From assembly GCA_026415215.1 (NCBI GenBank), contig JAOAHN010000122.1, positions 11,954 through 75,953 on the forward strand: DNA of 64,000 nucleotides, written 5' to 3'. Below, in pieces: positions 41,182 through 62,600 of the stretch. The notes beneath the pieces were generated by a model. That model was not told the origin of the DNA. It made no database searches and saw nothing but the letters and a program-made list of their open reading frames with translations. How positions within the stretch are numbered: position 1 is the stretch's first letter; each line of letters opens with the position of its first letter. The position numbers were made by a program, and so were the translations under genes. This stretch comes from Candidatus Hydrogenedentota bacterium (GTDB lineage: Bacteria > Hydrogenedentota > Hydrogenedentia > Hydrogenedentales > Hydrogenedentaceae).

Positions 41182-41652
41182 CTACATTTTTTCTAATTCT
41201 GAAGAAGTTGGCAGAGTATAAGGAGTAACCATGGCACTCGCGATGGCGTGGACCTTTTCTCTGTAGTCGAATACTTTAGCGTTTAGAAATAACATCTTTC
41301 TGCTTTTTGCGCCGATATATGTCTCTACGGTTAAAGCGGAAGAGTTCGCAGGCACTGGATTTATTAATGAGAACTCAGTATGAATAGGAATGCAAGGTTT
41401 TTTTGCAAGAGAGTATGCAAAACAATAGAACGCCTCAGTGAGAGCCATGTATAAATAGCCTGGACTTATAAACCCCAAACTATCTTGGTATTTAGGGTTG
41501 CAAGGAAGGATAAAGTTCATACTTTTCCCTGCCTGTATCCCACTGATACTCATTTTGAGCTCAGTGAAACAAGTAGAGGGCCATGATACCTTTATTCCCT
41601 CTACTTTGTATTGTGACAAGGTAGTAAAAAACTGTTCTGTAAAACTATCCAC
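41182..41652 (-). CDS. Hypothetical protein (GTG start)
   Basis: 156 aa with no confident domain. Perhaps a hotdog-like fold. A perfect hairpin overlaps its start. Confidence 0.3.
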   Translation of the reverse strand: MDSFTEQFFTTLSQYKVEGIKVSWPSTCFTELKMSISGIQAGKSMNFILPCNPKYQDSLGFISPGYLYMALTEAFYCFAYSLAKKPCIPIHTEFSLINPVPANSSALTVETYIGAKSRKMLFLNAKVFDYREKVHAIASAMVTPYTLPTSSELEKM

Positions 41653-47213: not shown

Positions 47214-49292
47214 ATGTGTTTTTTTGAAATTGTCTCTATTGCGTTGATGTTTTTTTCACCTTCAGATTTTGATACTTCTCTCTCGGTAGAGCTACTTATT
47301 CAGAAACTTAGCTCTAAGAGTGAGTTAGATCATGCTATAGCTCGTCAGCTTTTGTCTTTAAAAAATCCAGTGGTAGTGGTGCCTAAAATTTTGCCTTTCT
47401 TGGAATCGGAGGATCCTGACATTAAAGGAACTACAAGGAACATTCTCATAGATTTAGCAAATGATTCTAAAAAGTGGGGAGGTGATGTAAGAAAAAATTT
47501 GTCGCACATATTAATCGAGTCTTTTTTAGATTCGAAGAGATCTACTTCTGCAAGAGAAGATATTCTAAAAGCATTGATTTTTACAGTTGACGATGAAGTT
47601 GATCTATTACCCCTAAAAGAGTATCTCATTAACGAGGAGTGGAGAGAGAAAATCAGAACCGCATTAGTCGAAGCTAATACTAAACCAGCTAAGAGTTTGT
47701 TATGTGATTCTTTAGATGTATTGGATGATAAGGCAAAATCAGCGATACTTTTAGGTTTATATCAATTGGATGGGGTTCCCTGTGAAGAGAAAGTAATTTC
47801 TCTCCTATCTTCCTCCAATCCTGAACTCCGAGCCTCTGCAGTTCTAAGCCTTTCGAATACCCCTTCGCCTATTTATGCAGAAAAAATATTTCAAGTATGT
47901 GTACTGGAGCCTGAAATTAGTGATTATTACCAACAAAATTGGGATAGTCTATTAAGAATTACTGAGAGAATACTACAAACAGGTGGGAATTGGAGTTATG
48001 CTATAAACCTGTATAAAAAAATACTGGCCTTTTCTAAATCTCAATCAATAGTTTGTTCCGCAATATTTGGATTGGGAAGATACGGTGATGACAGTGTGGC
48101 TGAATTCCTATCGGAATTGGTTATTACCTCAGAAGGAGAAAAGAAGAAGTGTGCAATGTGTGCCTTATCCCAGATTAGCTCCAAGGGGATTGCTGATAAG
48201 TTACTAAATTTGTGTGGTAGGTTATCACTCGAAGAGCAGGCTATGCTATTGCCTGGTTTATTGAGGGAAAATAATAGGGAAATTAATGAAACTGTTATTA
48301 ATATTCTGTCTACGCCTATAGGAAAGGAGAAGTTTATAAATTCCTTTTGGGAAGAACCGAATTGTAACTATCTCAACTATTTAACATATCTGGATAAAGA
48401 TATAACTGAGATTCAAAGAAATAAAATTATTCAATCCCTCTGGAAATATGTTTCTACTAATACAGAAGAAAATCAAGAGTGTAAAGGAAAAGCATATATG
48501 CTCCTTTATAAAATGGCTCCTCCAGATGAGAAACCTTATGCTATGTCAGGCTTGAAGAAATTTCCAATTACGGAAGTTACACAGGACCTTCTCCAAGATA
48601 TTTTGAAAGAAGGATATGATAGTTTACCATTTCCGCTCTTATTCGAATTGTATGGAGCTTTGCCCAACGAAGACGAAAGAAAAGGTAGATTAAAGGGTTT
48701 GTTAATATCTCAAATAAAAGAATCTTCATTAGAACTTATTTTGTCTATCGTTAGTGAGAGTAAATATTTAGATAATTTTCCATCTCTCGCAGGTTTTATC
48801 ACTTCTTGGAAACTAATAGGACCTTTTCCTTGGAGCTTCGGAGAGGGGATAGATTCCGATTACGGAGTTTTGAATGCTGTTGAGGGGAATAAAGGGGTTG
48901 AATTCAGGGGGAAAAGATTTGAATGGAAAAGTGTTAAGACTGAGGGATGGGGGTATGTAAACTTAATGCATTTGTGTGAGGGGAAAGACGAGGAATGTTC
49001 AAATATTTGTGCATTTGCTTTGGCAAATATAAAAATTACAGAAGCTCAAGAATCCTACTTGCTCTTAGGAAGTGACGATGGATATAGACTTTGGGTCAAC
49101 GGTGAATTAATAGATGCGAAAAATGTAGATAGAGGAATGAAGGTAGATGAAGAAAAATTGCCCATAAAGCTCTTGCCTGGTTCTAATAAGATTTTACTTC
49201 AGATTACGCAAATAAGGGGAGGGTGGAATTTTTGTGCGAGATTAGTAGATAAGGAAAACAAACCACTTAAGTTTGAAATGGAAGGAAACTAA
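47214..49292 (+). CDS. HEAT/ARM-repeat protein with a C-terminal PA14-like domain
   Basis: The N-terminal ~500 aa are helical repeats. The C-terminal 'LLLGSDDGYRLWVNGELI' is a PA14-type motif. Confidence 0.45.
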   Translation: MCFFEIVSIALMFFSPSDFDTSLSVELLIQKLSSKSELDHAIARQLLSLKNPVVVVPKILPFLESEDPDIKGTTRNILIDLANDSKKWGGDVRKNLSHILIESFLDSKRSTSAREDILKALIFTVDDEVDLLPLKEYLINEEWREKIRTALVEANTKPAKSLLCDSLDVLDDKAKSAILLGLYQLDGVPCEEKVISLLSSSNPELRASAVLSLSNTPSPIYAEKIFQVCVLEPEISDYYQQNWDSLLRITERILQTGGNWSYAINLYKKILAFSKSQSIVCSAIFGLGRYGDDSVAEFLSELVITSEGEKKKCAMCALSQISSKGIADKLLNLCGRLSLEEQAMLLPGLLRENNREINETVINILSTPIGKEKFINSFWEEPNCNYLNYLTYLDKDITEIQRNKIIQSLWKYVSTNTEENQECKGKAYMLLYKMAPPDEKPYAMSGLKKFPITEVTQDLLQDILKEGYDSLPFPLLFELYGALPNEDERKGRLKGLLISQIKESSLELILSIVSESKYLDNFPSLAGFITSWKLIGPFPWSFGEGIDSDYGVLNAVEGNKGVEFRGKRFEWKSVKTEGWGYVNLMHLCEGKDEECSNICAFALANIKITEAQESYLLLGSDDGYRLWVNGELIDAKNVDRGMKVDEEKLPIKLLPGSNKILLQITQIRGGWNFCARLVDKENKPLKFEMEGN

Positions 49293-49294
49293 TT

Positions 49295-50461
49295 ATGAGA
49301 GCATTCATGTTTTGGATAGGAACCTTTTGCCTATGTTGTACCCAAGGGACCTTGATTGCAGATGAGGAAACCTATCTTCTTTTCAAGAAAGAAAAGATTG
49401 GAAATGCCATATTTGAATCTGCTTCAGTTTTCGATGTGAATAAAGATGGATACTTAGATATTGTATCTGGAGAATTTTGGTACGAGGGACCCGAGTTAGA
49501 AAAGTCTCACAGGATTACATACTTGGAGCCTATAGATGACTATTACGACAACTTTTCTGACTTTCCAATGGATGTAAATGGAGATGGGTATCTTGATGTA
49601 GTAACTGGAGGTTGGTGGGGAAAAACTCTACGCTGGAGAGAGAACCCGGGGAAGGAAGAAAAAAATTGGGTTACTCACGATGTAGAAGAAGTAGGAAATA
49701 TAGAAAGATGCTTGTTTTGTGATTTGGACAATAGCGGAATTCCAGAGGTCATTCCTATAACTAAACCAGTATTAATTTTCAAATTAAAATTTACCGAGAA
49801 TGGGAAACCAGCAGGTGGATTTGAAAAAATTGTTATCGAGACTGAAGGTGGGGGAGGTCATGGAATAGGATGTGGAGATGTTGACGGTGATGGGAGTATT
49901 GACCTTGTGTTTTCAGGAGGCTGGCTTAAATCTCCTCAAAATCCGTACGATACTAAGGGTTGGAAGTGGTTTCCTGAGTTTAACCTTGGGTCAGCGAGCG
50001 TTCCTATTTTAGTGTTCGATGTTAACGAGGACGGCCTTAACGACTTAATAGTGGGCTCTGCTCATGATTATGGGTTATTTTGGTATGAGCAAAGGAAGGA
50101 TGGAGAGGCTAAACGGGAATGGGTAAAACACGATATAGATAAGTTTCGCTCCCAATATCATGATATTCAGCTCCACGACATCGATAATGATGGCAAGTTA
50201 GAATTAGTCACAGGCAAGAGGTACAGGGCTCATGCTTTTCATGACCCTGGTTCAAAGGATCCATTAGGCGTTTATTATTTCAAAATCACTAATGGAAAAT
50301 TTGAGAGATATACCATTGATTACGGACCTGCAGACAGAGCAAGCGGTGTAGGAATATATTTTTGGGTGGAAGATATAGATAAGAATGGCTGGAAAGATAT
50401 AGTAGCTCCGGGAAAAGAAGGACTGTACTTGTTCCGTAATTATGGACTGATTCCGAAATAG
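49295..50461 (+). CDS. Secreted FG-GAP repeat beta-propeller protein
   Basis: Signal peptide. Seven 'D-x-[DN]-x-DG-x-x-[DE]' repeats: 'DVNKDGYLDIV', 'DVNGDGYLDVV', 'DLDNSGIPEVI', 'DVDGDGSIDLV', 'DVNEDGLNDLI', 'DIDNDGKLELV', 'DIDKNGWKDIV'. Confidence 0.7.
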   Translation: MRAFMFWIGTFCLCCTQGTLIADEETYLLFKKEKIGNAIFESASVFDVNKDGYLDIVSGEFWYEGPELEKSHRITYLEPIDDYYDNFSDFPMDVNGDGYLDVVTGGWWGKTLRWRENPGKEEKNWVTHDVEEVGNIERCLFCDLDNSGIPEVIPITKPVLIFKLKFTENGKPAGGFEKIVIETEGGGGHGIGCGDVDGDGSIDLVFSGGWLKSPQNPYDTKGWKWFPEFNLGSASVPILVFDVNEDGLNDLIVGSAHDYGLFWYEQRKDGEAKREWVKHDIDKFRSQYHDIQLHDIDNDGKLELVTGKRYRAHAFHDPGSKDPLGVYYFKITNGKFERYTIDYGPADRASGVGIYFWVEDIDKNGWKDIVAPGKEGLYLFRNYGLIPK

Positions 50462-50470
50462 TCCCGGCCA

Positions 50471-50884
50471 ATGTCTAAAGGGAAAAGAATGGTAAGTGTT
50501 AAAAATAGGGTGATAAAACTTGTTATCGCGATAATTGTGGCAATAAATCTCGGTTTGTTAGAAGCAGCCTGGACTACTCCCGTTGCTCCAGGGGCTGTAA
50601 AAGCAGGATTAGGATGTTTCGCCATAGGGGTTATTCTAACGGTGGTTTCTTATCCTTATATTTGGTGGGTACCCGGCTTAAGTATGGTTGAGGAGTTTGT
50701 TCAAGTATTTGTAGGTAGTGAGGGCAATTGGATGCCTAATTCTGATTGGATTTTTCATCATTGGTCTGCCGGATACTTCGGAATTAACCTTTATCCAGTT
50801 ATATCGTTTCCTCTGTTTAGTTTTGTAATTGAGGCATGCTATAAACTTTGGAGAAAGAATGAAAATATAAATAAATGTTGTTAG
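50471..50884 (+). CDS. Hypothetical membrane protein
   Basis: 137 aa with 3-4 TM segments. No domain recognised. Confidence 0.3.
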   Translation: MSKGKRMVSVKNRVIKLVIAIIVAINLGLLEAAWTTPVAPGAVKAGLGCFAIGVILTVVSYPYIWWVPGLSMVEEFVQVFVGSEGNWMPNSDWIFHHWSAGYFGINLYPVISFPLFSFVIEACYKLWRKNENINKCC

Positions 50885-50932
50885 CGTTTTTTTCGTAACC
50901 CGGATGAATTTCTAATTTTGGCAAGCGCCTCG

Positions 50933-51541
50933 TTATTTATCGAACTTATTTATGATAACTACTTCTTCGTAAGATAGCTGTCCCGCTCTTGGCCAAGCAG
51001 GTTTGACCGCTTTTCCAATGGCAATCATCATACCTATGACATGGTCCTCAGGGAGATTTATAAGTTTTCCAACTGCTTCAAAGTCAAAGCCAATCATCGG
51101 ACATGAATCGTATCCCATTGCTTTCGCTATTAACATTATAGTCTGTCCCGCAATTCCGCATGAACGCATTGCCTCGTCTCTTTGAACTTGCTCTCTGCCT
51201 CTATAGAAGCTATCTATTGCGGGGACAACAAATTTTTTTACCTCTTCTGGTGCGTTTTTCCAATATCTTTCTGGATTTTTCTCCCATGCCTTGACATCGG
51301 CACATAAGACTATGAGTAGAGAAGAATCGGTTACTTGTGGCTGATTCCATGCAACTTCTCTTATTTTTCTTCTTAACTCTTTATCTTGAATTAGTACAAA
51401 TCTCCAATGTTGAATATTGAACGAAGTGGGGGAAAGCATAGCGTAGCTTAGCAATCTTTTTATTTCATCTTCATCAATCTTAAATTCTGGATCAAAATGC
51501 TTTACTGCTCTTCTTGCTTCTACCGCTGAAAAGACATCCAT
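50933..51541 (-). CDS. Nitroreductase-family protein
   Basis: 'AMLSPTSFNIQHWRFVLIQD' matches the nitroreductase 'SAPS..N.QPWRF' motif. Length 202 aa. Confidence 0.7.
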   Translation of the reverse strand: MDVFSAVEARRAVKHFDPEFKIDEDEIKRLLSYAMLSPTSFNIQHWRFVLIQDKELRRKIREVAWNQPQVTDSSLLIVLCADVKAWEKNPERYWKNAPEEVKKFVVPAIDSFYRGREQVQRDEAMRSCGIAGQTIMLIAKAMGYDSCPMIGFDFEAVGKLINLPEDHVIGMMIAIGKAVKPAWPRAGQLSYEEVVIINKFDK

Positions 51542-51631
51542 ACATTGCTCCTTTCCAAGTATTATTAAAAATCTCTATCGCTCCTTATTAACATACTATT
51601 GGTTCCAGATTATTTCTCACAAGTGAAAATA

Positions 51632-53323
51632 TTAGAGAGACTTTATCCTATTCATTTTTTCTATTATATGTTTAACTTTTTTGCCCATAGCAGAAGAGCG
51701 TTCATATCCCCCTTTATAAATATTTAATGTTTGTTTGCACAGTTCTAATGGATTGTTGCCTTCTAAATTATCTCTTTCAAATTTAGTCACATTAGTGAGA
51801 GGTTTGAGATAAGGATTGATTTCGCTAAATATTCTTATCTGCTCATCTATCTCAGTTAGTAGCTTTACTTGTTCTTTTGCTTTTGAGATATTTTTATTGG
51901 CGAGGCTATGTCTGATCTGTTCGGTAATGTATATACCTTGTTTGTATTTTTTCGCTAATTCTTCAAATATAGCCGAGAACTCTTTGCTCCAATCTTTTGT
52001 AATAGTATCCTGTGGGATTTTATAGTATTTCAAGGTTTCTAAGGTACCTAAATTCTCGTTTTTACTTATGATAGAAGTCCCAAAACTCTCTATCCACATT
52101 TCTCTATAAGCTAACCTTAGAAAATCTTTTTCTGTGATCTCCCTTCTGATCAGTGGTAAGAATTGAAGGCACCCATCCGAAGCAAACTCGGAAATATGCA
52201 CATTGATATTCTCCATCGTGAGAGAGTTTTCTTGTTGTGTTATAAGTTCCTGGGAGCGATAATGGATTAACCATTCAAACGCTTGAAACACTTGCTCCGG
52301 GGATATTTTGTCAGCAAAAGTGTCTTCGGTGTGTCTCGAGGATATATCCATTTTGAAACTTCTCTCTCTAAGTTCTACCGCGATATTTTTTCTACCGTAA
52401 GGTCCTGTTTCTCTAAAGTGCACATAACCTACGGATACGAGTAAAACAGGACATCTCACCGCTACCGCAAGATGCATGGTTCCAGTGTCGTTGGTTATTA
52501 ATGCAGAAGAATGTTTCAATAATCCTGCTAATTGATCGAGATTTGTTTTTCCAAACAGTGGTATTGCTAAGCCCGGTACTTCTTTTTGAAACCTGTTTCC
52601 TAATTCTGCTTCAGATGTGACTCCGACAAGAAAAAAACGAGCTTTGTGTTTTTCGTGGATCAATTTGGCTAATTTTGCGAAAAACTCAGGAGGCCATCTT
52701 TTAACCGGTTCACTCGCACCTAACTGCAAACATATAACCATTTCCTCTGAAGATATAGAATATCTATTGAATAATTCTCTTGCATATTCCTCACCTTCTT
52801 TTTTAACTTCATATATTAGACTGTCCACGGAATCGTTGACCGGTTCGTAAAGTTTAAAAATGTCGCACAGGTTCAAGTCATTATAATCTCTTGATAGAAC
52901 ACTCGTAAAAAAGTATACAGTCCACGCTCCTTTTAGATTGAATACCCAATCAGAAGAGATATTTGCCCCCACTACATCTTCTATCTCTGCCAACTTGAGT
53001 AATAGTGCCGAAGATGTACTATGGGTTACATTGTACGCTTTGTTAAATTTTCTACTTTGGAGTTCAGTAATAAATTTTTCGGTAGTTTGGTACGCATTAA
53101 GTAGTCGGTCTGAGTCATTAGATAGTAAGTCTGAAAATATAGGATCCTCATTGTAGATTATGTAGTCATTTATATCAGGGTTCGCTTTTGCTACCGGCTC
53201 ACTCATTGACCTTATCATCAGAGTAATATGGGCATGGGGGAATTTTTTACGGATATTACTAAGCAAAGGAGTGGTTTGGAGAGTATCACCTATTCTCGCA
53301 GTCTGAAGAACTAATATATTCAT
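51632..53323 (-). CDS. GT9 (heptosyltransferase-like) glycosyltransferase with a ~220-aa C-terminal extension
   Basis: N-terminal 'MNILVLQTARIGDTLQTTPLL' and 'GASEPVKRWP', 'NDTGTMHLAVA' motifs of ADP-heptose:LPS heptosyltransferases. The C-terminal region is unknown. Confidence 0.65.
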   Translation of the reverse strand: MNILVLQTARIGDTLQTTPLLSNIRKKFPHAHITLMIRSMSEPVAKANPDINDYIIYNEDPIFSDLLSNDSDRLLNAYQTTEKFITELQSRKFNKAYNVTHSTSSALLLKLAEIEDVVGANISSDWVFNLKGAWTVYFFTSVLSRDYNDLNLCDIFKLYEPVNDSVDSLIYEVKKEGEEYARELFNRYSISSEEMVICLQLGASEPVKRWPPEFFAKLAKLIHEKHKARFFLVGVTSEAELGNRFQKEVPGLAIPLFGKTNLDQLAGLLKHSSALITNDTGTMHLAVAVRCPVLLVSVGYVHFRETGPYGRKNIAVELRERSFKMDISSRHTEDTFADKISPEQVFQAFEWLIHYRSQELITQQENSLTMENINVHISEFASDGCLQFLPLIRREITEKDFLRLAYREMWIESFGTSIISKNENLGTLETLKYYKIPQDTITKDWSKEFSAIFEELAKKYKQGIYITEQIRHSLANKNISKAKEQVKLLTEIDEQIRIFSEINPYLKPLTNVTKFERDNLEGNNPLELCKQTLNIYKGGYERSSAMGKKVKHIIEKMNRIKSL

Positions 53324-53325
53324 TG

Positions 53326-55113
53326 CTATCTTTTCTCCTTTAGGAGCTGTTCTCCGAATACTCTTATCTCATTCATCAGCCAGAATATTTTTTCAGGAAA
53401 GGCAGATTCTGGGCCCAGTGTATTTAGGTAGGTATTAATATGATGTTGAGTAAAGGGTATATCCTGGGGTAGAGAAATTAGCCACTGTCCAAGTATAGAA
53501 TCTTTTCCTACTATATCAATGATTTCACCAATTGTTCTCCTAATCCGAATACCCTTTCTAATTATTTTCCCGCCAAAATTCTCAATTAAAAACTCCAACA
53601 TTTCTTGTGCTCGATTTTGATAAGTGTGTTCTTTTAATGCTCGCATCCTCGCATTCTTGGCTATTTGTTTTCTCTCGTCCTCATGTTCAAGGTAATAATT
53701 AATTTTTTCTCTCAAGGATTTTAGGTCTGTATATGTTGGTATTTCTTCATGAATGTCAAACAATCTCTCTAATCCTTTACACGGGTCACATAGTTGAAAT
53801 CCACCGGCCGATGCAATTTCAAATACCCGTGGGTTTATAGCGTCTGCTTCCGGGTCGATTCCTTCATGGATTACACTCGAGTGAATGTTTAAGTTAATCT
53901 TAGAGCCCGCAACTATTTTCATATACTCTTCTGTGTCGAAGCCTTTTTCACCTTCTACAACATGGGGCAATAAATCTTGGTCATACCAATTAACTCCCCA
54001 TATCTTCAAATTGTAATCAGTCAATCCTTTGAGAATCTGAATTCTGTTGTAATATCCAGCGCCGGCAAAAGATAAGTCACATTTATATTTTTTTTCTTCC
54101 TCCGGAGTGAGTTTTATAGGCTTATGTAAGTCTGGATCACAGCCTGTAAGCACAGCTTTGTGATATTTACAGCCTATTGAGTCAAGTTTCTCGTCAAAAT
54201 CACCGGGTTGTATGTGGAAAAACACATCATAGAAAGGTGCTATGTCCCTCCAGTAACTCATATGTCTCCAATTTTCGACAAACCAAAAGGCAGTGATTAT
54301 ATTCTTTTCCCTCAATTTGCTCACTGTGATTATATTCAAAGGAGCTTGAGCAAGTGCTATACATATCTCGGGCTGGAATTCTATTATTTGAGCATAACAC
54401 CATTCTGAAAGAAATCGAGTAAGGAATTCTTCAAGATAATTGACGATCTTTCCACTTTTAATTTTTTCTTTGACAGAGTTGTAGAGAGACCATCCGCATT
54501 CGGGATCTATAAGAAACGCATTATGACCTAATTTTTTCAAGGCGAGCGTTAGATATTTTGCTATAGGCAGAGATCCCCCATACATAGGACCTATTACTGC
54601 AATGTTTAATCTGTTTTTCTGGAAAATGTAGGTAGATATATCTCTCAAAAATGAGTTGTAAAACTCAAGATTTAGTTTTAGTGCTATTGGATGAAGGAAA
54701 GGTTGGGGAATTTTGTTTATAAACTTGAGGAAAGTCTCGTCGTTTAGCAGTTCATTAGTATTTCTTGATATAGCAAGTAACAGATTATCTGGAAGCTCCA
54801 CAGTATTAATACATGTAGTTACTATCTCAGGATTTGTTTCTATTACTAATAGTTCAAATCCTCTTCTCAAAAGTTCTTTGATGTGGTAGCCTAATCCAAG
54901 CCCTCCTACTATAACTGGCCTTCTTATGTCCAACTCAGCTGAATCTATTATTCTTTTAGCTTCTTCAAACGGATCATACTGACTATGATAAAGAAGTCCA
55001 TTTACTCTTATCGTTTTTATACCTTCTTTTTTTTCTAAGATCTCTATTTTCGCTGGTGTAGGATTATCTTTTAACTCGAATCTCCATTCTTTGATTGTTT
55101 TTACGACGCCCAT
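53326..55113 (-). CDS. CgeB-family (DUF3880 / Glyco_trans_1_2-like) glycosyltransferase
   Basis: C-terminal 'EIASAGGFQLCDPCKGLERLFDIHEEIPTYTDLKSLREKINYYLEHEDERKQIAKNARMRALKEHTYQNRAQEM' matches the CgeB/Glyco_trans_1_2 pattern. Its start codon abuts the stop of the upstream fusion gene. Confidence 0.55.
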   Translation of the reverse strand: MGVVKTIKEWRFELKDNPTPAKIEILEKKEGIKTIRVNGLLYHSQYDPFEEAKRIIDSAELDIRRPVIVGGLGLGYHIKELLRRGFELLVIETNPEIVTTCINTVELPDNLLLAISRNTNELLNDETFLKFINKIPQPFLHPIALKLNLEFYNSFLRDISTYIFQKNRLNIAVIGPMYGGSLPIAKYLTLALKKLGHNAFLIDPECGWSLYNSVKEKIKSGKIVNYLEEFLTRFLSEWCYAQIIEFQPEICIALAQAPLNIITVSKLREKNIITAFWFVENWRHMSYWRDIAPFYDVFFHIQPGDFDEKLDSIGCKYHKAVLTGCDPDLHKPIKLTPEEEKKYKCDLSFAGAGYYNRIQILKGLTDYNLKIWGVNWYDQDLLPHVVEGEKGFDTEEYMKIVAGSKINLNIHSSVIHEGIDPEADAINPRVFEIASAGGFQLCDPCKGLERLFDIHEEIPTYTDLKSLREKINYYLEHEDERKQIAKNARMRALKEHTYQNRAQEMLEFLIENFGGKIIRKGIRIRRTIGEIIDIVGKDSILGQWLISLPQDIPFTQHHINTYLNTLGPESAFPEKIFWLMNEIRVFGEQLLKEKR

Positions 55114-58100
55114 TCATTTATCCTTTTCTAAAGTATCTAACTCTTTCTCAATTTCTTCTGTTTTTCCAAAAAGTTCGACAAACTCCTTTAAAAGATTTAT
55201 TGCTTCACTTTTATTGTTCTGCCTGACTAAATATCTTGAATACTCTATAATAAGCCTTACATTGGAAGGGTAGAACTTACTAAATCTATCTAAGGTTTCT
55301 TTAGCTATCTCATTTTTCCCTAATGACTCACACACAGACACAAACAAAGGAAGTATCTCTATGTATTCGTATGAATTTGAATAGACGGAATAGAAATACT
55401 CAAAGGACTTCTCTAAATTATTGACTTGTAAATAGGCTTGGGCTATGGCTAATTTTAATTTCAGATCTTTAGGAATTTGCTTTTCTGCCTCGTGTAGATG
55501 CTTTAAAGCTATAAAGCCCTGGCCCATTGCGACAAGTAGAATACCGTACTCAAGCAAAATTTTTGGATTTTCTTTGTTGCTTTTGAGAAGCTCAGTATAT
55601 ATTTCCTGGGCTCTTACTAAGTTTCCTGTGTGAGCGTAGAACTTTGCCTCGAGTGTTTTCTTTTTCCAATCTGGTATTTCCAACTTTACCTCACTGAGTT
55701 CTAATAGATACTCAAACTTTTTTTCGGTTATTAACATACTCACGAACTCGTCGAAAATTTTTTCTGCTGTTGGTATTTTTTGTGCTACTGCTACATATTG
55801 ATATGCCCTTATGTCTTCATAATCTCTTTCACTAACTCCTAAGATTGTTAATTTCCCTAACCTAATAGAGCCATCCGCATTTTTTGGAACATAACTCTCT
55901 GGTGTAATGTTGATAGGACTTACTAAGATGGGTAAGTAACCAGCTCTTTTAAGAAGACTTCTTATCCCTGTTTTGCTGAGCAGACTAATGTGAGTAATGT
56001 CTAATATTCCACTATCTTGGTATCTCCACTCACCATTAGAAAGCTCTGCAATAACACCCCAGTATCTAATGTTAGGGATACTGATAAGTACATATCCGTA
56101 ATTAGCAAGGTATTTGTGTATCTTTTTAAGGATATCAAATGGGCTGATAAGATGTTCTAAAACATCACAAAAACAGATGAGGTCAAAAAACCCATCCTCG
56201 AAAGGCAAATCTATTTCCTCAATGTTCCCGCATATTACTTTATCTAAGTTTTTTTCAGCAATCTTTGCTATGGACTCTTCTGTTTCAACTCCTGCAACAA
56301 AACTAACTTTGAGAATGTCTTTTAGAGCTTTTCCGAAAAGCCCAACTCCACAACCGATATCTAACACATTTTTCACACTTTGGGGGATATAAGGTAGGAG
56401 ATCCCACCTTTGAGAGGAATAGTAGACTATTGGTTTTCTCGAAAGTTTATTTACTCGAGGCCGATTAAGGTTAAAGTTTTCCTCAATTGTTTTTACTATC
56501 TGTTCGACTCTGTGATGATATGTATGATATTTTAATACTTTTTCCTTACCTTGCTGTGCTATTTTTTCCCTCTCGTCCTCATTTTCTAAGTAGTATTTTA
56601 TCTTATCCAATAACTCATCTTGGCTATGATATACCACAATTTCCTTGCCGTCTTCAAACAGTTCGTTTATGCTATCTGCAGGATCTGTAACAAGTAGAGC
56701 TCCAGATGCAAGGGCTTCAAAAACTCTCATATTTAGGTCATAGTTGATGGCTGAGTTTACTACAATTTTGCTTCGAGAGTATATTCTTGCCATTTCTCTA
56801 GGCCAACTTTTTCCTATGAAGTGATTGGGAAATTTATCTGCAACCTTTTTAAGAATTTTTATCCTTTTGTCTCCCTCTTCGTGAGATAAACTCCCTACAT
56901 AGGCTACATCAATGTCTCTTGGAAGTTTCTCCTTAGGGTATAGTTCAGGATAGCAAGCAAGGGGTAGCCAGTATACATATCTAATCCCCTCCAACTTGAA
57001 CAACTCCACATGGCTTTTTTGTGCTAAAAAAACTATGTCAAAGTGGCGAGCCATTTCAAGTCTCGTCTTAAAGTCTAAATGAGTGTCTATAAAATACGCT
57101 ATTTTGAGTATGTTCATTGCATCCAGTTCTGGGTCTATTGTTTTTAATCCTGAGTCCACATAGAGGTAGAACTCAAAATTATATCCGTTTGGAAGTTTTT
57201 CAAGTGTATGCTTTATCCTGTTTTCATCCAATGTAGTTGGTATTCTCGGCGGAGGATAGGGGGGATAAGGGGATAAGAATCCCCATCTCTCAAGTAGCTC
57301 TTCGGGGCATCTAAAGCCGATACTTACAACATCATGTTTTTCTTGTAAAGCATATTCTAAGTATCTTCCAGTTGTATAGGGAGAGGATACATAGTCTAAG
57401 AGGATGCGATATCTTTTAGGATAATTTGGAGGTTTGCTTATTTGAACAGAGTTAGTTTCTAAACCTGAATGGGTAAGTATAATCTTTTGCCATTTATCCA
57501 CAAATTCGCCAATAGGAAAGGTATTTTTTACCGTTTCTCTACCTCTTTCTCCAATCTCTCGAGCTACTTTTTCGTCTTCTAATAGCAATTCTAAATACTC
57601 TCTTAATTCTGCTGGATCAAATGAAGAAAATCCGTCAACCCCATTTGTTATAGGAGAGGTATAGTTTTTTAATGCTACCACAGGCATCCCACAAGCCATG
57701 GCTTCTAACATTGCTAAGTTATAACCATCCTCAAATTCTTGTCGTGTCACATGAAGGTAACACCTATTTTTCCGGTAGGCATTTAGGAGTTCCTCGAAGC
57801 TTGTAGAGACAGTGGAATTTGGAATTTGAGGATTTTCTCCAATGACTTGGTTTGGCAATCCCGCACATACTGCTTCTTGAAAAGGTACATCAAACATCCA
57901 GTTTCTCTCGTACATATAGTTGCCTACTCGCAATATCTTGGGAATCTCACCTGTGTATCCTCCATATTCATCTACATCTATTCCAGGAGGTACTACATAT
58001 CCTTGAAGATTATAGTCATCTTGTTTAGAATATGAGATAAATACTAAAGCAAAGGCTTTTGCAAGAACCTCAACATTTTTTTCGAAGAGTTCGACGATAT

Positions 58101-58437
58101 TTGGGTCAGATTTTGGAAGAATTGTTTTAAGGAAGGTTTTCCTATTATGACACACAAGCAATTTCGGGCAAGTGTATTCTTTTAGATCCCAAGCATTTAG
58201 CTCATTGTGGGCAATTAGTATATCGTAGTACCCATTTTTTAGTCTGTCACGCCATTCTTCTTCCGGAATCTCAATCAGGTTTTCAGGTTTAGGTCTAAAT
58301 TGGGTTTTCCATGTTCGTGAGAGTATACCTTCTTTATATAATCCCAGCTCCATCTCAAAACCTGTTTTTGCGAGAAGACACATGTAGGGCTCATGAAAGT
58401 TGAATGTGAGGATTCTAATCTTTTTGGGGTAACCCAT
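55114..58437 (-). CDS. Four-module fusion: GT4-like glycosyltransferase + CgeB-like domain + class I SAM methyltransferase + C-terminal TPR repeats (1107 aa)
   Basis: GT4 'EDGYNLAMLEAMACGMPVV' (aa ~240-260). CgeB-like 'FEALASGALLVTDPADSINELFEDGKEIVVYHSQDELLDKIKYYLENEDEREKIAQQGKEKVLKYHTYHHR'. SAM motif I 'VLDIGCGVGLFGKAL' with 'DLICFCDVLEHL'. Helical TPR-like repeats fill the last ~270 aa. Confidence 0.6.
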   Translation of the reverse strand: MGYPKKIRILTFNFHEPYMCLLAKTGFEMELGLYKEGILSRTWKTQFRPKPENLIEIPEEEWRDRLKNGYYDILIAHNELNAWDLKEYTCPKLLVCHNRKTFLKTILPKSDPNIVELFEKNVEVLAKAFALVFISYSKQDDYNLQGYVVPPGIDVDEYGGYTGEIPKILRVGNYMYERNWMFDVPFQEAVCAGLPNQVIGENPQIPNSTVSTSFEELLNAYRKNRCYLHVTRQEFEDGYNLAMLEAMACGMPVVALKNYTSPITNGVDGFSSFDPAELREYLELLLEDEKVAREIGERGRETVKNTFPIGEFVDKWQKIILTHSGLETNSVQISKPPNYPKRYRILLDYVSSPYTTGRYLEYALQEKHDVVSIGFRCPEELLERWGFLSPYPPYPPPRIPTTLDENRIKHTLEKLPNGYNFEFYLYVDSGLKTIDPELDAMNILKIAYFIDTHLDFKTRLEMARHFDIVFLAQKSHVELFKLEGIRYVYWLPLACYPELYPKEKLPRDIDVAYVGSLSHEEGDKRIKILKKVADKFPNHFIGKSWPREMARIYSRSKIVVNSAINYDLNMRVFEALASGALLVTDPADSINELFEDGKEIVVYHSQDELLDKIKYYLENEDEREKIAQQGKEKVLKYHTYHHRVEQIVKTIEENFNLNRPRVNKLSRKPIVYYSSQRWDLLPYIPQSVKNVLDIGCGVGLFGKALKDILKVSFVAGVETEESIAKIAEKNLDKVICGNIEEIDLPFEDGFFDLICFCDVLEHLISPFDILKKIHKYLANYGYVLISIPNIRYWGVIAELSNGEWRYQDSGILDITHISLLSKTGIRSLLKRAGYLPILVSPINITPESYVPKNADGSIRLGKLTILGVSERDYEDIRAYQYVAVAQKIPTAEKIFDEFVSMLITEKKFEYLLELSEVKLEIPDWKKKTLEAKFYAHTGNLVRAQEIYTELLKSNKENPKILLEYGILLVAMGQGFIALKHLHEAEKQIPKDLKLKLAIAQAYLQVNNLEKSFEYFYSVYSNSYEYIEILPLFVSVCESLGKNEIAKETLDRFSKFYPSNVRLIIEYSRYLVRQNNKSEAINLLKEFVELFGKTEEIEKELDTLEKDK

Positions 58438-58449
58438 TTTCGTAACTGG

Positions 58450-59088
58450 CTAATTGCTATCGATGACTTCGATATTTTCAACTAATTTTTTTAATAGATT
58501 AAGTATTTCTATTTCCTTTTCAGCTCTCGGAGCTAATTCGTATTGTAGTATATCCGAAAGAGATATTATATCTTCTCTGTCTAAGGCTTTATAAGCTTCG
58601 TTAAGGTACTGATTCAATTCATTGTGATGTTCTATTATATCGCTTATTATTGGATTTTCCCCCTCCACATACTTTGATATTGTGTTTACAATTAATGCTT
58701 CCCGATTTTTTATTTCACCCCAGATCTCTGTTAATTTTTGAAATGGACCGAGTGCGTCGGCTGGATTCTCGCTCTGAAATAGTTCCGCAATCCCATAACA
58801 TAGGTTACTTAATTCGGGGGTATATTTTTCTAATTCAACTATACTTTCGCGAAGTAATTGCAAGGTCGGTACTGCAGTTACCTCAATTATGTGTATATTA
58901 GAAATATCCATATTTTGAACGGCGCTCAAGGACTTTCCAGGTGGTACTTCTTGTTCATTTACTCTAAGCTTTATTAGACCAAGGTCTTTGCTGGATAAAT
59001 ATTCGAGAAGGGTTTCTAAAACATTCATAAGATTCCTTGCTCCTTCAGGAACTGGAAATTCTTCTTTCTCATTAATAATAACTCTCAT
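58450..59088 (-). CDS. Hypothetical protein (212 aa) immediately downstream of csrA
   Basis: No recognisable domain; predicted largely helical and acidic. It occupies the position where flagellin (hag/fliC) normally follows fliW-csrA. Confidence 0.4.
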   Translation of the reverse strand: MRVIINEKEEFPVPEGARNLMNVLETLLEYLSSKDLGLIKLRVNEQEVPPGKSLSAVQNMDISNIHIIEVTAVPTLQLLRESIVELEKYTPELSNLCYGIAELFQSENPADALGPFQKLTEIWGEIKNREALIVNTISKYVEGENPIISDIIEHHNELNQYLNEAYKALDREDIISLSDILQYELAPRAEKEIEILNLLKKLVENIEVIDSN

Positions 59089-59101
59089 TTTCGCGTATTC
59101 C

Positions 59102-59332
59102 CTATTTTCTATCGTTAATCTTTGGAATATATATATCTCCCCCTCCTGGGTTTTGAGATGCTTGTCTATTTTCCTCTTTGATTAGTAAGTATACTTCTAA
59201 TCTGTGAACTGGAACTGAGCGGGGGGCGTTAATTCCTATCTTTACTTGGTTTTCTTTAATTTCCAGTATTTTTACCTCGATATCATCCCCAATCATTATA
59301 CTCTCATTTTCTCTACGGGATAGCACTAACAT
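59102..59332 (-). CDS. csrA: Carbon storage regulator CsrA
   Basis: Start re-set to ATG 59332 ('[48 protein letters not shown]'). Canonical CsrA fold motifs ('LVLSR', 'GINAPR...V.R.E'). The ATG sits 2 nt after the fliW stop. Confidence 0.9.
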
Positions 59333-59333
59333 A

Positions 59334-59789
59334 TTAGACCTCCTGTCTTTCATTAGAAGAGTTATTAGGGTGCGATAGGAACCATTGCACAGGATACTCC
59401 GTTTTGTCTAATATCATTTGCTTTGCTAAATTCTTCTTCTTATTTATCACAATGGGAGCCCTTAGATTTGTTCTTATTTGTTTAGGATCTTCGGGAACTA
59501 CTAAAAGGGTGTACACAGTAATGTCTTCAGTTTTATCTGCCTCCAATTCCGATAAATCTTGAGTAGTAAATGGCACATTATATGTTGGAATTATATAATA
59601 AGGATCCACCATTAGAAAGGCAAGTTTACCGTCCTCAACCGATTGCAACCAGAATATTGGACAATCGGATCCAGCAGGCAAAATTATGAATTTCTTATAG
59701 GCTTGAAATCCGAGGATAGGTTTTACAAAAACTATTATTTCGCTTTTCTTAACCTCAATGTCTCCAAATCTCGTGGTAGCTATTTTCAT
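59334..59789 (-). CDS. fliW: Flagellar assembly factor FliW
   Basis: '[21 protein letters not shown]...KFIILP...[21 protein letters not shown]...[12 protein letters not shown]' aligns with FliW (DUF180). Confidence 0.85.
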
Positions 59790-59869
59790 TATGGTATGCC
59801 TGCTTATGAAATTTTAAAGTTTAAGAGAAAATCATAATTTTCAGATAGCCAGTAAGTTATTTTTTATCA

Positions 59870-59884
59870 TTGATAGATTATCAA
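59870..59884. promoter_or_regulatory. Perfect palindrome TTGATA-GAT-TATCAA upstream of the fliW operon
   Basis: 15-bp dyad about 80-95 nt upstream of the fliW start, in the promoter region between tRNA-Leu and fliW. Confidence 0.3.
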
Positions 59885-59937
59885 AAATTTTAGGGAGGAT
59901 AACAAACTGGAAATGGCATAAGAAGGGAGCTTCAATG

Positions 59938-60021
59938 TGCCCGGGAGGAGACTTGAACTCCTACCCCATTGCTGGGACCAGATCCTTAGTCTGGCGCGTC
60001 TGCCACTTCCGCCACCCGGGC
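59938..60021 (-). tRNA. tRNA-Leu (type II, long variable arm), anticodon read as AAG, no encoded CCA
   Basis: Reverse complement GCCCGGGTGGCGGAAGTGGCAGACGCGCCAGACTAAGGATCTGGTCCCAGCAATGGGGTAGGAGTTCAAGTCTCCTCCCGGGCA. Acceptor GCCCGGG/CCCGGGC, D-arm GCG..CGC, anticodon stem CCAGA/TCTGG with loop CTAAGGA, variable stem CCCA/TGGG, T-arm AGGAG-TTCAAGT-CTCCT. Confidence 0.8.
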
Positions 60022-60054
60022 TAATGAAGTCATTAATAAATTTTATAACTTTTC

Positions 60055-60090
60055 TATATAAAAATCAACTCGATTAATCGAGATTTTTAT
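60055..60090 (-). terminator. Rho-independent terminator of the zinc-ribbon mini-gene
   Basis: 14-bp perfect palindrome CTCGATTAATCGAG (60069-60082), followed on the minus strand by TTGATTTTTATAT. It is flanked by A and T runs, so it could act in both directions. Confidence 0.5.
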
Positions 60091-60341
60091 AACATTGGCT
60101 CATGTCTACCTTTTCCAGGTCCATTTGGGTGGCGGAGACAAAAATTTGCAGACATTGAAGATATTGAGGAGAATTTTTTCCCACAATATTTACAAATATA
60201 TGTAGTTTTTTCTTCTCCCTCGTAAGGGAGATGTCTCCCTTTTCCGAAACCTAAAGGATGTCGAGGACACAGCGAAGATGTAAGTGAAACTACATCATTA
60301 GCCTGTCTTCCACAATATTTGCATACATATTTAGGTGACAT
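60087..60341 (-). CDS. Small protein (84 aa) with two tandem Cys2-Cys-His zinc-ribbon-like repeats
   Basis: Repeat 1 'YVCKYCGRQANDVVSLTSSLCPRHPLGFGKGRHLP'. Repeat 2 'YICKYCGKKFSSISSMSANFCLRHPNGPGKGRHEP'. Each has CxxC-N14-CxxH-P-x-G-x-GKGRH. Confidence 0.5.
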   Translation of the reverse strand: MSPKYVCKYCGRQANDVVSLTSSLCPRHPLGFGKGRHLPYEGEEKTTYICKYCGKKFSSISSMSANFCLRHPNGPGKGRHEPML

Positions 60342-60383
60342 TTTTGCACTCCTTATAATTAGAATTTTCCCAAACCTATAATT

Positions 60384-61118
60384 TTATATTTCTATCTTTG
60401 CTCCTAATTCTTTAGCAACGAGTATACTTGAGCGGAGTAGTGCGTCAAAACTTCCACAATCTGCCCACCACCCTTCTAAAAACTCGTAAGTCATAGTACC
60501 GCGTCTTATATATTCATTGTTTACATCAGTTATCTCCAATTCTCCTCTTGCACTCGGCTTCAATCTCTTGCATATTTCAAATACATCTGAGTCGTACATA
60601 TATATACCTATTACTGCATAGTTAGTGGGAGGATTCTTGGGCTTTTCAATTATCTCTTTTACTTTTCCCCCTTCTATGACTGCCACTCCAAACTCCTGAG
60701 GGTTCGAGACCTCTTTCAAAAATATTTTTGCTCCCTCCGACTGCTTTTCAAATTCTTCTAACGCTTTCTTTATACTACCCTGAATGAAATTATCTCCAAG
60801 TATTACGACTACCTTATCCTTTCCTACAAACGGTTCTGTAAGTGACAATGCATGGGCGATTCCCCCCTCTGTTTTTTGATATGTATAATGAAGCTGGTTA
60901 AGTCCAAAATCTTCTCCGTTTCCTAAGAGTCTAAGAAAATCTCCTGCATTATTACCTCCAGTTACAATCATTATGTCTTTTACACCTGCATCTACAAGGG
61001 TTTGTATTGGATAAAAAATCATGGGTTTGTTATATACAGGAAGGAGATGCTTATTTGTAACGCGAGTGAGGGGAAGTAACCTTGTTCCTAATCCTCCAGC
61101 TAATACTACACCTTTCAT
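60384..61118 (-). CDS. Sugar-1-phosphate nucleotidyltransferase, RmlA-like (glucose-1-phosphate thymidylyltransferase, short form)
   Basis: The N-terminus 'MKGVVLAGGLGTRLLPLTRVTNKHLLPVYNKPMIFYPIQTL' closely matches the RmlA signature (GGxGTRL...K.LLPVYDKPMIYYP). At 244 aa it is shorter than canonical RmlA. Confidence 0.65.
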   Translation of the reverse strand: MKGVVLAGGLGTRLLPLTRVTNKHLLPVYNKPMIFYPIQTLVDAGVKDIMIVTGGNNAGDFLRLLGNGEDFGLNQLHYTYQKTEGGIAHALSLTEPFVGKDKVVVILGDNFIQGSIKKALEEFEKQSEGAKIFLKEVSNPQEFGVAVIEGGKVKEIIEKPKNPPTNYAVIGIYMYDSDVFEICKRLKPSARGELEITDVNNEYIRRGTMTYEFLEGWWADCGSFDALLRSSILVAKELGAKIEI

Positions 61119-61364
61119 TTTATTCTCCTTCTTATAGGTGTTCTAAGGTTGATTATACTTTTTTTACCTCCAAAAATTTAATCTTTGTAACTGATGAAAA
61201 TTTAAATTCTATGTTTAGAGTTGCAAATAAGGATTGTATTTAGATATTTTCATTCCTGCAAGTCTTAGATTAATAATGTTCATATACTACAATTATAGAT
61301 ACGAAACCTATGAATATTTCATTGTTGTTATCAATTTACCTTAATATAAAGGCATAAGGAGATT

Positions 61365-62600
61365 ATGTCTTCTTCAACAGTGAGAGAGTGGTTAAATCTT
61401 TTCTTGATACCAGGGATTGGGTCAAATGTAATTCTTAAATTAGTAGCTCGGTTCGGTTCTCCTAAAGAGGTGCTTACCGCATCTGAGTCAGAGCTGGCTA
61501 ATGTAGTTGGATATTCTTATGCTCGGATACTCTCTTATTATAGAGAAACGGTAGATTTAGATGGTGAACTCAAGAAGATTGATAAGCACGAGGTAAAAAT
61601 CATTACTTTAGATGATAGTGATTATCCTGTTTCCCTTGCGGAGCTTTACGACCCTCCGATGGTTTTGTATGTGAAAGGGGAACTAAAGCCGACTGACCTA
61701 TATTCTGTTTCTATAGTAGGGACCAGGAATTGTTCTCCGTATGGGGCAAAGGTAACTGAGTATTTTTCCCGGGGACTTGCAGAAGTTGGTATTACTATAG
61801 TTAGTGGGTTAGCCATAGGAGTGGATGGAATAGCTCATAAGTCTGCATTGAGTGCAGGGGGGAGAACGATTGCCTTTTTAGGCTCTGGGATTGATGTTAT
61901 TTATCCATCTAAACATGAGCAGTTGTTCAGTGAAATTAAAGATAACGGAGCAGTAATTTCTACTTTTCCTATGGGAACTCAGCCAGTAGGGAAAAATTTC
62001 CCTATTAGAAATAGGTTTATAAGCGGATTTAGTTTTGGCACAATTGTAACTGAAGCGACTTTGTCCAGTGGGGCACTTATCACTGCTAAGTATGCAGTAG
62101 AGCAGGGTAAGACTGTATTTGCGGTTCCAGGACCAATTGGATATCCAGGAAGTGAAGGCCCTCATTGGCTTATCAATCAGGGTGCAAAATTGGTTGAAAA
62201 AAGTTCAGATATAATTGAGGAAGTGCCGAATTACCTTAAAGATTACTTAATTTCTTGTAAAACTACTCCTCCGGGCCCAGACTTTGATAGACTATCTTCA
62301 CCCGCAAACTCAAATTTATCTGATAAATCACACTCCGCTGGTAGTAAGAAAGATATTTCTCGCCTTGAAACTCAGTCTGAGAATAATTCTTCTACCTCAA
62401 AGGGAAGTTTCTCTGGTATTCACAATATTTCCCCTCAAGAACAGAAAATACTATCTGTCCTATCTCCTAATGGTTCTTATGTAGACGAGGTCGCCTTGAG
62501 TTGTAATATCCCTGTTTCTGAAGCACTTTCTCTACTTACCATGATGGAAATGAAAGGATTAGTTACACAATTTTCCGGAAAGAGGTTTGCAAAAGCATAG
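61365..62600 (+). CDS. dprA: DNA processing protein A
   Basis: Rossmann-like DprA core ('SIVGTRNCSPYG', 'GLAIGVDGIAHKSAL', 'TVFAVPGPI'). Ser-rich linker and a C-terminal winged-helix-like tail. Confidence 0.8.
   Translation: MSSSTVREWLNLFLIPGIGSNVILKLVARFGSPKEVLTASESELANVVGYSYARILSYYRETVDLDGELKKIDKHEVKIITLDDSDYPVSLAELYDPPMVLYVKGELKPTDLYSVSIVGTRNCSPYGAKVTEYFSRGLAEVGITIVSGLAIGVDGIAHKSALSAGGRTIAFLGSGIDVIYPSKHEQLFSEIKDNGAVISTFPMGTQPVGKNFPIRNRFISGFSFGTIVTEATLSSGALITAKYAVEQGKTVFAVPGPIGYPGSEGPHWLINQGAKLVEKSSDIIEEVPNYLKDYLISCKTTPPGPDFDRLSSPANSNLSDKSHSAGSKKDISRLETQSENNSSTSKGSFSGIHNISPQEQKILSVLSPNGSYVDEVALSCNIPVSEALSLLTMMEMKGLVTQFSGKRFAKA

Follow-up and report, generated by a model that had tools for sequence, protein, structure and literature searches.

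Flagellin glycosylation is known mainly from the Maf and FlmG enzymes and a few GT-A glycosyltransferases, nearly all of them studied in pathogens and mostly with sialic-acid-like sugars. FlmG combines an N-terminal tetratricopeptide repeat (TPR) domain with a single glycosyltransferase domain, has no methyltransferase and uses pseudaminic or legionaminic acid donors, and the Maf flagellin glycosyltransferases have PF20157 as their N-terminal domain. The products of fliW and csrA form a partner-switch pair that times flagellin translation. We analyzed a stretch of 64,000 nucleotides from a Candidatus Hydrogenedentota bacterium (contig JAOAHN010000122.1; hereafter the window) in which one minus-strand gene, at 55114..58437, encodes a protein of 1107 amino acids that joins two GT-B glycosyltransferase domains, an S-adenosylmethionine (SAM)-dependent methyltransferase and a TPR arm, in that order. 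Domain content and gene context together suggest that this fusion is probably the core enzyme of an uncharacterized, widely distributed flagellar, and most likely flagellin, glycosylation island.

On the best reading of these sequences, the glycosylation set would consist of the fusion, the directly abutting protein with Maf-type N-terminal (Maf_N) and CgeB-like domains, a GT9-like protein and, in most lineages, a DUF8042 protein, all predicted to be soluble and cytoplasmic. The detailed division of labor among these enzymes is proposed with much lower confidence than the island assignment itself. It is about as likely as not that the set forms a new class of flagellin glycosylation machinery, present in at least six phyla, in which a Maf_N domain is grafted onto a CgeB-like GT-B transferase and accompanied by an extending and methylating fusion, a DUF8042 adaptor and wiring to fliW-csrA. 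With confidence just as evenly balanced, we place in this class Hydrogenedentota, Nitrospinota, Nitrospirota, Desulfobacterota-type lineages (including Ca. Desulfofervidus), Latescibacterota and a Firmicutes metagenome-assembled genome (MAG). The functional prediction, which concerns a large family without annotation as well as three domains of unknown function, comes entirely from comparative genomics. Literature searches returned no description of this cassette or of CgeB-like enzymes in flagellar glycosylation, and searches on TP0873 and DUF3880/PF13524 returned no description of this system.

Flagellar neighborhoods of the cassette

In the window the cassette reads, on the minus strand, fliW (59334..59789, 151 aa; Pfam FliW, E 6.4e-36), csrA (59102..59353, 83 aa; Pfam CsrA, E 1.6e-25), the DUF8042/TP0873_N gene (58450..59088, 212 aa), the fusion gene, the CgeB-like gene (53326..55113, 595 aa) and the GT9 gene (51632..53323, 563 aa). 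The csrA start overlaps the fliW end, and the stop codon of the fusion (TGA, 55116-55114) directly abuts the ATG (55113) of the second CgeB-like gene, as an earlier reading of the DNA made from its letters alone (the sequence-only reading) had stated. Because the junctions span only 0-13 nt, we read the six genes as one operon. All Hydrogenedentota loci with sufficient flank had the order fliW-csrA-DUF8042-fusion-CgeB-like-GT9; they span 39-73% identity, their flanking genes are unrelated, and csrA is 61-83% identical between them.

Other phyla were reached by querying with the Desulfobacterales orthologue and then reading the genomic contexts. Outside Hydrogenedentota and Nitrospinota, these contexts were flagellar in 7/7 cases. 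The cassette of a Desulfobacterales MAG is divergent from flgF-G-A-H-I-J-M-N-K-L-csrA-fliW, and the closed genome of Ca. Desulfofervidus auxilii has flagellin-fliD-fliS and, on the opposite strand, fliT-DUF8043/8042-GT9-Maf_N/CgeB-like-GT9-CgeB-like facing the fusion gene; the flagellin of this organism has 280 aa, with 25% Ser+Thr in its central third. A Dissulfurispiraceae contig reads Maf_N/CgeB-like-fusion-x-Maf_N/CgeB-like-GT9-DUF8042-motA-motB-pilZ-motA-motB, and on a Latescibacteria contig with flgF...flgK-flgL the fusion gene starts 16 nt downstream of flgL. Three further contigs carry fliD-fliS...fusion-Maf_N/CgeB-like-GT9-DUF8042, flagellin-flaG-fliD-fliS-fliT-...-fusion-Maf_N/CgeB-like-GT9-DUF8042 and flgK-flgL-csrA-fliW-flagellin-fliD-fliS-fliT-fusion-GT9-CgeB-like-GT9-DUF8042, respectively. 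Since flagellar loci take up a percent or two of a genome, seven independent flagellar adjacencies out of seven lie far beyond chance.

Judged by adjacency, then, the cassette belongs to a flagellar island both in Hydrogenedentota, through fliW-csrA in the same operon, and in all seven of the other lineages, through late flagellar neighbors; the Nitrospinota loci do not. There, N. gracilis 3/211 and Nitrospina sp. 32_T5 (an isolate) included, a trio of fusion, CgeB-like and GT9 genes stands without fliW, csrA or the 212-aa gene. Wherever the flank is long enough, the GT9 gene comes next after the CgeB-like gene. The fusion had been pictured in the sequence-only reading as a self-contained machine that adds and methylates sugars, a view that fails because it is always accompanied by the Maf_N/CgeB-like and GT9-like proteins. 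What Hydrogenedentota have looks like a rearranged vestige of the csrA-fliW-flagellin-...-cassette arrangement on the last of the contigs listed above, the flagellin gene now lying in another part of the genome.

Further features were seen at individual loci. An extra gene of 259-276 aa stands between the fusion and CgeB-like genes in Desulfobacterales (L066, 12849-13679) and Dissulfurispiraceae (L086, 13002-13781); its two products are 56% identical and have sub-threshold methyltransferase matches, and the fusions at both loci have no TPR arm. Islands of other phyla also encode very large proteins of the types radical-SAM/TPR, GT2/TPR (1258 aa) and radical-SAM/TPR/methyltransferase (1066 aa) (L085 14384-21357; L086 3558-7183; L089 2176-4302; L090 4705-6039), which suggests an elaborate, unexplored flagellar modification chemistry. 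A 182-aa open reading frame (ORF) upstream of the Nitrospinota fusion gene (L058 9216-9764; L064 9159-9707), considered as a DUF8042 analogue, was rejected as the antisense shadow of a divergent molybdopterin oxidoreductase gene; it is conserved in high-GC Nitrospinota loci and is not a real gene. The six-gene cassette of the Hydrogenedentota type also occurs, at 40-72% identity to the window, in many MAGs whose titles read 'uncultured Nitrospirales/Nitrospiraceae bacterium' (L006, L007, L010, L014, L015, L019, L021, L023, L030, L037, L049, L052), and these titles are probably placeholder or wrong taxonomy.

Domains of the fusion and its partner proteins

The fusion gene is an uninterrupted ORF of 1107 codons that begins with the ATG at 58437, and the plus-strand frame of the same interval is riddled with stops. 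Both motif strings picked out in the sequence-only reading were found in the protein, EDGYNLAMLEAMACGMPVV at residues 236-254 and VLDIGCGVGLFGKAL at residues 691-705, and its assignment of GT4, CgeB-like, SAM methyltransferase and TPR modules was backed by Pfam, structure prediction and fold search. An AlphaFold2 (AF2) model built with 54 homologues had a mean predicted local distance difference test score (pLDDT) of 91.3 and a predicted template modeling score (pTM) of 0.66, and it resolved four domains; all four modules are real. The linkers between domains, such as residues 656-668, are modeled with low confidence and are unconserved.

GT-B domain 1 (residues 8-325; 57463..58416, minus strand) is GT4-like. 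It has pLDDT >90 throughout and a two-Rossmann GT-B fold, for which Foldseek against the PDB found resemblance to the GT4 enzymes BshA, MshA and PglA (E about 1e-11 to 1e-9). Pfam Glycos_transf_1 matched with 70 bits in the whole protein and with 36.5 bits, above the cut-off of 26.4, when residues 1-325 were scanned alone; Glyco_trans_1_4 also matched, its best stretch being residues 215-288. The motif reads E236-D237-GYNLAML-E245, and E236, D237 and E245 were unvarying in 54 sequences. Taken literally, the motif previously quoted as E-x7-E is either E236-x8-E245 or D237-x7-E245.

GT-B domain 2 (residues 344-655; 56473..57408, minus strand) is a bona fide member of the CgeB/YkvP Pfam family with a predicted non-sporulation role. 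It matched Glyco_trans_1_2 (165.8 bits, E 7.7e-49, residues 527-648; cut-off 25) and, slightly below the cut-off of 25.2, DUF3880 (23.6 bits, residues 448-517), and it is 27% identical to the CgeB-like part of the 595-aa neighbor. The class I SAM-dependent methyltransferase (residues 670-890; 55768..56430, minus strand) matched Methyltransf_23 (67.5 bits) and Methyltransf_11 at residues 680-834, carries motif I as VLDIGCGVG and has a Rossmann-like class I fold with an acidic residue after beta-2. Its solved relative 3cc8 (BCE_1332, a putative methyltransferase) was matched both by profile (E 9e-62) and by Foldseek (target TM-score 0.86). The TPR arm (residues 892-1105; 55123..55764, minus strand) matched TPR_19 (38.5 bits) and TPR_14 (36.6 bits) at residues 931-1100, and profile comparison with PDB sequences added a match to the OGT TPR domain (E 6e-25). 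The AF2 model gives it 13 helices and about 215 residues, shorter than the 270 aa or so of the sequence-only reading.

Conservation differs sharply between the domains. Compared with 45 distant Hydrogenedentota homologues, the mean identity of the window protein was 54% in GT-B domain 1 (49 invariant columns), 49% in GT-B domain 2 (35), 41% in the methyltransferase (26), 22% in the TPR arm (2) and 8-9% in the linkers (0). These values indicate that the three enzymatic modules are under purifying selection and that the TPR arm is fast-evolving. Invariant residues include R170, G172, R178, E236, D237, G238 and E245 in GT-B domain 1, N569, R571, E574 and G579 in GT-B domain 2 and D693, G695, C696, G699, E718, D758, E761 and H762 in the methyltransferase. 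Among them are the positions predicted from sequence to bind nucleotide-sugar or SAM.

The 595-aa protein has a Glyco_trans_1_2 match (Pfam, E 9.4e-37) preceded by about 165 N-terminal residues with the motif LHSxYxPxEEA...GLGLGYH. Maf_flag10_N (PF20157) was sub-threshold in the window protein (E 0.0045) and matched 25/40 of its orthologues (best E 6.9e-12), in agreement with the precomputed annotation of relatives; because the orthologues match PF20157, we read the protein as Maf_N + DUF3880 + CgeB-like GT-B. Taken alone, it had no PDB sequence match. We discarded the idea that its N-terminus is a copy of GT-B domain 1 of the fusion, as BLASTP similarity was confined to the CgeB-like parts. 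The GT9 protein matched Pfam Glyco_transf_9 (E 3.5e-23), NCBIfam heptosyltransferase II (TIGR02195; 96.9 bits, under the equivalog cut-off of 134.6) and, in the PDB, 3tov and 1psw. Its C-terminal extension of about 200 residues (~355-563; 51632-52260, minus strand) had no Pfam match, and its orthologues are 537-592 aa long with the length of the extension kept in all.

The 212-aa protein carries PF27299 (TP0873_N) and PF26154 (DUF8042), as precomputed on the identical database protein P0121 and its orthologues. Its AF2 model (pLDDT 85) has an N-terminal beta-grasp domain (1-74) and a four-helix bundle (75-211). A fold search with it gave generic helix bundles and ubiquitin-like folds only, a search of PDB sequences gave no relatives, and comparison with FliT gave no sequence similarity. 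A word-index homology search returned only 9 relatives. By hhalign, it is homologous to the Ca. Desulfofervidus DUF8043/DUF8042 protein encoded next to fliT (probability 88.5%, E 2.7e-6), and short DUF8042 genes follow the GT9 gene in two more loci. We regard this protein as a candidate adaptor or specificity factor. None of the cassette proteins has a transmembrane-like segment, and the cassette contains no flippase, ABC exporter, polymerase, initiating phosphoglycosyl transferase or membrane protein.

In a promoter and terminator scan of 50400-61400, sites were no commoner than in shuffled sequence, and no sigma-28-type promoter was seen by eye upstream of fliW. In most Hydrogenedentota loci (L002-L067), fliW has, some 35-50 nt upstream of its ATG, the motif CTTGC-N17-20-(G)TGCATACT(G), after which comes a short leader with GGA/GGAG; this looks like a conserved promoter, possibly including a CsrA site. 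The window has only GGCATACC of this motif (59793-59800), 3 nt before the ATG, and its closest relative, L001, is without it. A tRNA-Leu gene (anticodon aag; 59937-60021, minus strand) between a zinc-ribbon ORF and fliW marks the upstream limit of the cassette in the window genome. That ORF (84 aa; 60087-60341, minus strand) encodes two tandem Cys-rich units, Y-x-C-K-Y-C-G ... C-x-R-H-P-x-G-x-G-K-G-R-H-x-P, has only weak zinc-finger/zinc-ribbon Pfam matches and is kept in L009 and L050 beside a gene for an NTP_transferase sugar-phosphate nucleotidyltransferase. In the window this last gene (60384-61118, minus strand; Pfam E 1e-57) is found 0.6 kb upstream of the cassette, a position that it retains only in the close relatives L001, L009 and L050; it lies outside the conserved set and could supply activated sugar. 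A HEAT-repeat gene (47214-49292) is paired with an FG-GAP gene (49295-50461), and the pair recurs next to the cassette in L001. The ORFs at 36235-38634, 38885-40309, 40344-41177, 41182-41652 and 50471-50884 (799, 474, 277, 156 and 137 aa, respectively) had no Pfam match at E 0.001 or better.

Proposed pathway and rival explanations

If the cassette serves flagellin glycosylation, flagellin monomers would be O-glycosylated in the cytoplasm, prior to export by the flagellar type III secretion system. One transferase would place the first sugar on Ser/Thr of the exposed central flagellin region, a role for which the GT9-like protein (through its analogy to protein heptosyltransferases) and the Maf_N-bearing protein are candidates. 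Extension of the glycan, with nucleotide sugars as donors, would fall to the GT4-like and CgeB-like domains. In all, the four GT-B modules (two of the fusion, one of each partner) would attach and extend an O-linked glycan, one sugar of which the methyltransferase domain would methylate. Flagellin or its chaperone complex may be gripped by the TPR arm, by DUF8042 together with the Maf_N domain, or by both. In Hydrogenedentota, co-transcription with fliW-csrA would mean that the modifying enzymes are made together with the regulators of their substrate. We propose the recognition step because flagellin is bound by the TPR domains of FlmG and Maf-1, and Maf-2 is bridged to flagellin by the four-helix-bundle protein GlfM (bioRxiv 10.1101/2023.12.03.569772). 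C. acetobutylicum has a 'DUF3880+glycosyltransferase' gene next to a Maf gene and to genes for nonulosonic-acid synthesis (PMC4000134).

Several observations weigh against this reading. Many members of the fusion family have no TPR arm (887-1000 aa), and the arm is therefore accessory to, and not the core of, the shared family function. The usual products of GT4, CgeB-like and GT9 enzymes are polysaccharides or lipopolysaccharide (LPS) cores, and conserved sugar-biosynthesis genes are absent from the cassette. When B. subtilis Hag and flagellar proteins of related loci were used as tblastn queries, neither the window nor the 10 kb around the cassette in Hydrogenedentota and Nitrospinota loci yielded a flagellin gene or any other flagellar structural gene. 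The trio lacks flagellar neighbors in N. gracilis 3/211 and in about 30 Nitrospinota loci, where DUF8042 was not detected either. In favor of the reading, published annotation lists fliC in 113/179 and fliW in 106/179 Hydrogenedentota genomes (PMC11406978 supplement), and flagella are encoded in the Nitrospina core genome, though motility has never been observed (PMC5029188).

The main alternative is an envelope-glycan or LPS role. The trio would then build or decorate a glycan of the envelope or the cell interior (an extended LPS core, an exopolysaccharide or a methylated storage polysaccharide, for instance), and the flagellar neighbors would reflect only a co-regulation, by CsrA, of motility with surface glycans. 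CsrA does control polysaccharide synthesis in other bacteria, the trio of Nitrospinota lies among housekeeping genes, and among the fold matches of the fusion are GT4 enzymes for polysaccharides and glycolipids as well as a methylmannose-polysaccharide mannosyltransferase and a capsule multienzyme. The GT9 protein likewise has LPS heptosyltransferases (TIGR02195, RfaF) as its best matches, but with a score under the curated equivalog cut-off, and its 595-aa partner bears a Maf-type N-terminal domain. The lack of any membrane or export component or transmembrane-like segment in the cassette, together with filament or late flagellar adjacency in 7/7 other lineages, where the cassette often shares the strand and directly follows fliT or flgL, makes this explanation unlikely in our view. 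Slightly less likely again is that the acceptor is another flagellar or surface protein (FlgK/FlgL, FliD, a sheath protein or a pilin), or that the methyltransferase methylates protein itself. The fusion gene comes directly after flgK-flgL, not flagellin, in several contexts, one Hydrogenedentota locus has type IV pilin-like genes (N_methyl) upstream, and 3cc8, the nearest solved relative of the methyltransferase, has no known substrate. The richest contexts, however, have flagellin-(flaG)-fliD-fliS-fliT immediately upstream, FliW binds flagellin specifically, the central third of the Desulfofervidus flagellin is rich in Ser/Thr, and the known flagellin lysine methylases, FliB, belong to a different family.

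A fusion acting mainly as a regulator or scaffold with FliW/CsrA through its TPR arm, in the manner of a GmaR-like moonlighting glycosyltransferase with at least one inactive catalytic module, seems very improbable to us. Such a role would fit the shared operon with fliW-csrA throughout a phylum, the GT4-like motif that departs from canonical E-x7-E spacing and the uncertain domain arrangement that a pTM of 0.66 implies. It fits poorly with three catalytic domains that are better conserved than the TPR arm and keep their cofactor-binding signatures, and with relatives that retain all three enzymatic domains in the absence of both the TPR arm and linked fliW-csrA. We give next to no credence to an assembly or annotation artefact joining separate genes. 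The window does come from a MAG, and a few relatives are split into chains of about 650 aa (e.g. P0182, P0183, P0185), but a protein with 100% identity to the fusion is encoded in a 'Candidatus Hydrogenedentes bacterium' MAG, and assemblies from NCBI, JGI, ENA and Logan supply over 120 independent homologues of full length with the same domain order. The best 120 of these (41-75% identity) were 120/120 of length 1066-1135 aa with the same Pfam set. A scan with one genome per species gave 512 relatives, including cultured N. gracilis 3/211 and the closed Desulfofervidus genome, and base composition is uniform over the ORF. A mis-assembly, the concern raised with the sequence-only reading, is thereby ruled out, and the fusion stands as a single polypeptide.

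Should the flagellar glycosylation island be confirmed, a large family annotated just as 'glycosyltransferase' or 'spore maturation protein CgeB' would become the catalytic core of a different, widespread flagellar glycosylation system of environmental phyla. The CgeB-like fold would gain a testable role beyond sporulation, DUF8042/TP0873-type proteins would be assigned a role, and the purpose of the Maf N-terminal domain would appear to be acceptor or chaperone recognition independent of the catalytic fold. The fusion would be a natural, soluble, one-polypeptide assembly line that builds and methylates a glycan, and its linkage to fliW-csrA in Hydrogenedentota would point to a possible coupling of flagellin translation control and modification. 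The family is present in two laboratory-grown organisms, Nitrospina gracilis 3/211 and Ca. Desulfofervidus auxilii, which makes the prediction testable.

Comparison with characterized systems

In WsaE of Geobacillus stearothermophilus and the pair WbdA and WbdD of E. coli O9a, two glycosyltransferase domains go together with a SAM methyltransferase, which lets a glycan be extended and methylated afterwards; the fusion would follow the same logic. They act on lipid-linked glycans at the membrane; WsaE has GT-A domains, and WbdD has a coiled-coil ruler. The cassette differs in being predicted soluble, GT-B and flagellum-linked. The GT9-like protein O-heptosyltransferases of the bacterial autotransporter heptosyltransferase family (TibC, Aah) are a precedent for a GT9-type fold that glycosylates protein Ser in the cytoplasm. 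The match of the 563-aa partner to TibC was weak and non-significant (E 0.47), and the partner is nearer to LPS heptosyltransferase-like 3tov and to RfaF and has the C-terminal extension described above.

B. subtilis CgeB and YkvP, glycosyltransferase-like proteins of spore crust and coat maturation, belong to families with strong Pfam matches both in GT-B domain 2 of the fusion and over two thirds of the 595-aa protein at its C-terminal end, and several databases label relatives 'spore maturation protein CgeB'. Unlike these proteins, the cassette has no sporulation context, its CgeB-like domain is fused to other modules, and in most lineages examined it lies in flagellar loci. The phyla that carry the cassette are not known as endospore formers.

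The fusion probably works like Maf and FlmG, to which the sequence-only reading had likened it. The flavor of flagellin glycosylation in that comparison gained strong support from gene context, which it had not used; the fusion is nevertheless a member of neither family. Like the cassette, Maf enzymes are cytoplasmic and encoded in the flagellar locus, and the 595-aa protein has their N-terminal domain PF20157. Maf-1's C-terminal TPR domain binds to flagellin and Maf-2 requires a small cis-encoded four-helix-bundle factor (GlfM), and by analogy the TPR arm and the DUF8042 protein look like counterparts of the Maf-1 TPR and GlfM. The cassette differs in that neither the fusion nor its partners have a MAF_flag10 (DUF115) match in Pfam, which sets the fusion outside the Maf family, and the GT-B modules are instead the predicted catalysts; it also has a fused methyltransferase, and no nonulosonic-acid pathway is conserved next to it. 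FlmG, from Caulobacterales, resembles the fusion in uniting a TPR protein-binding domain and a GT-B glycosyltransferase in one polypeptide. Domain order and content nevertheless separate the fusion from the FlmG family, as its TPR arm stands at the C-terminus, behind two GT-B domains and a methyltransferase, and many relatives can do without it.

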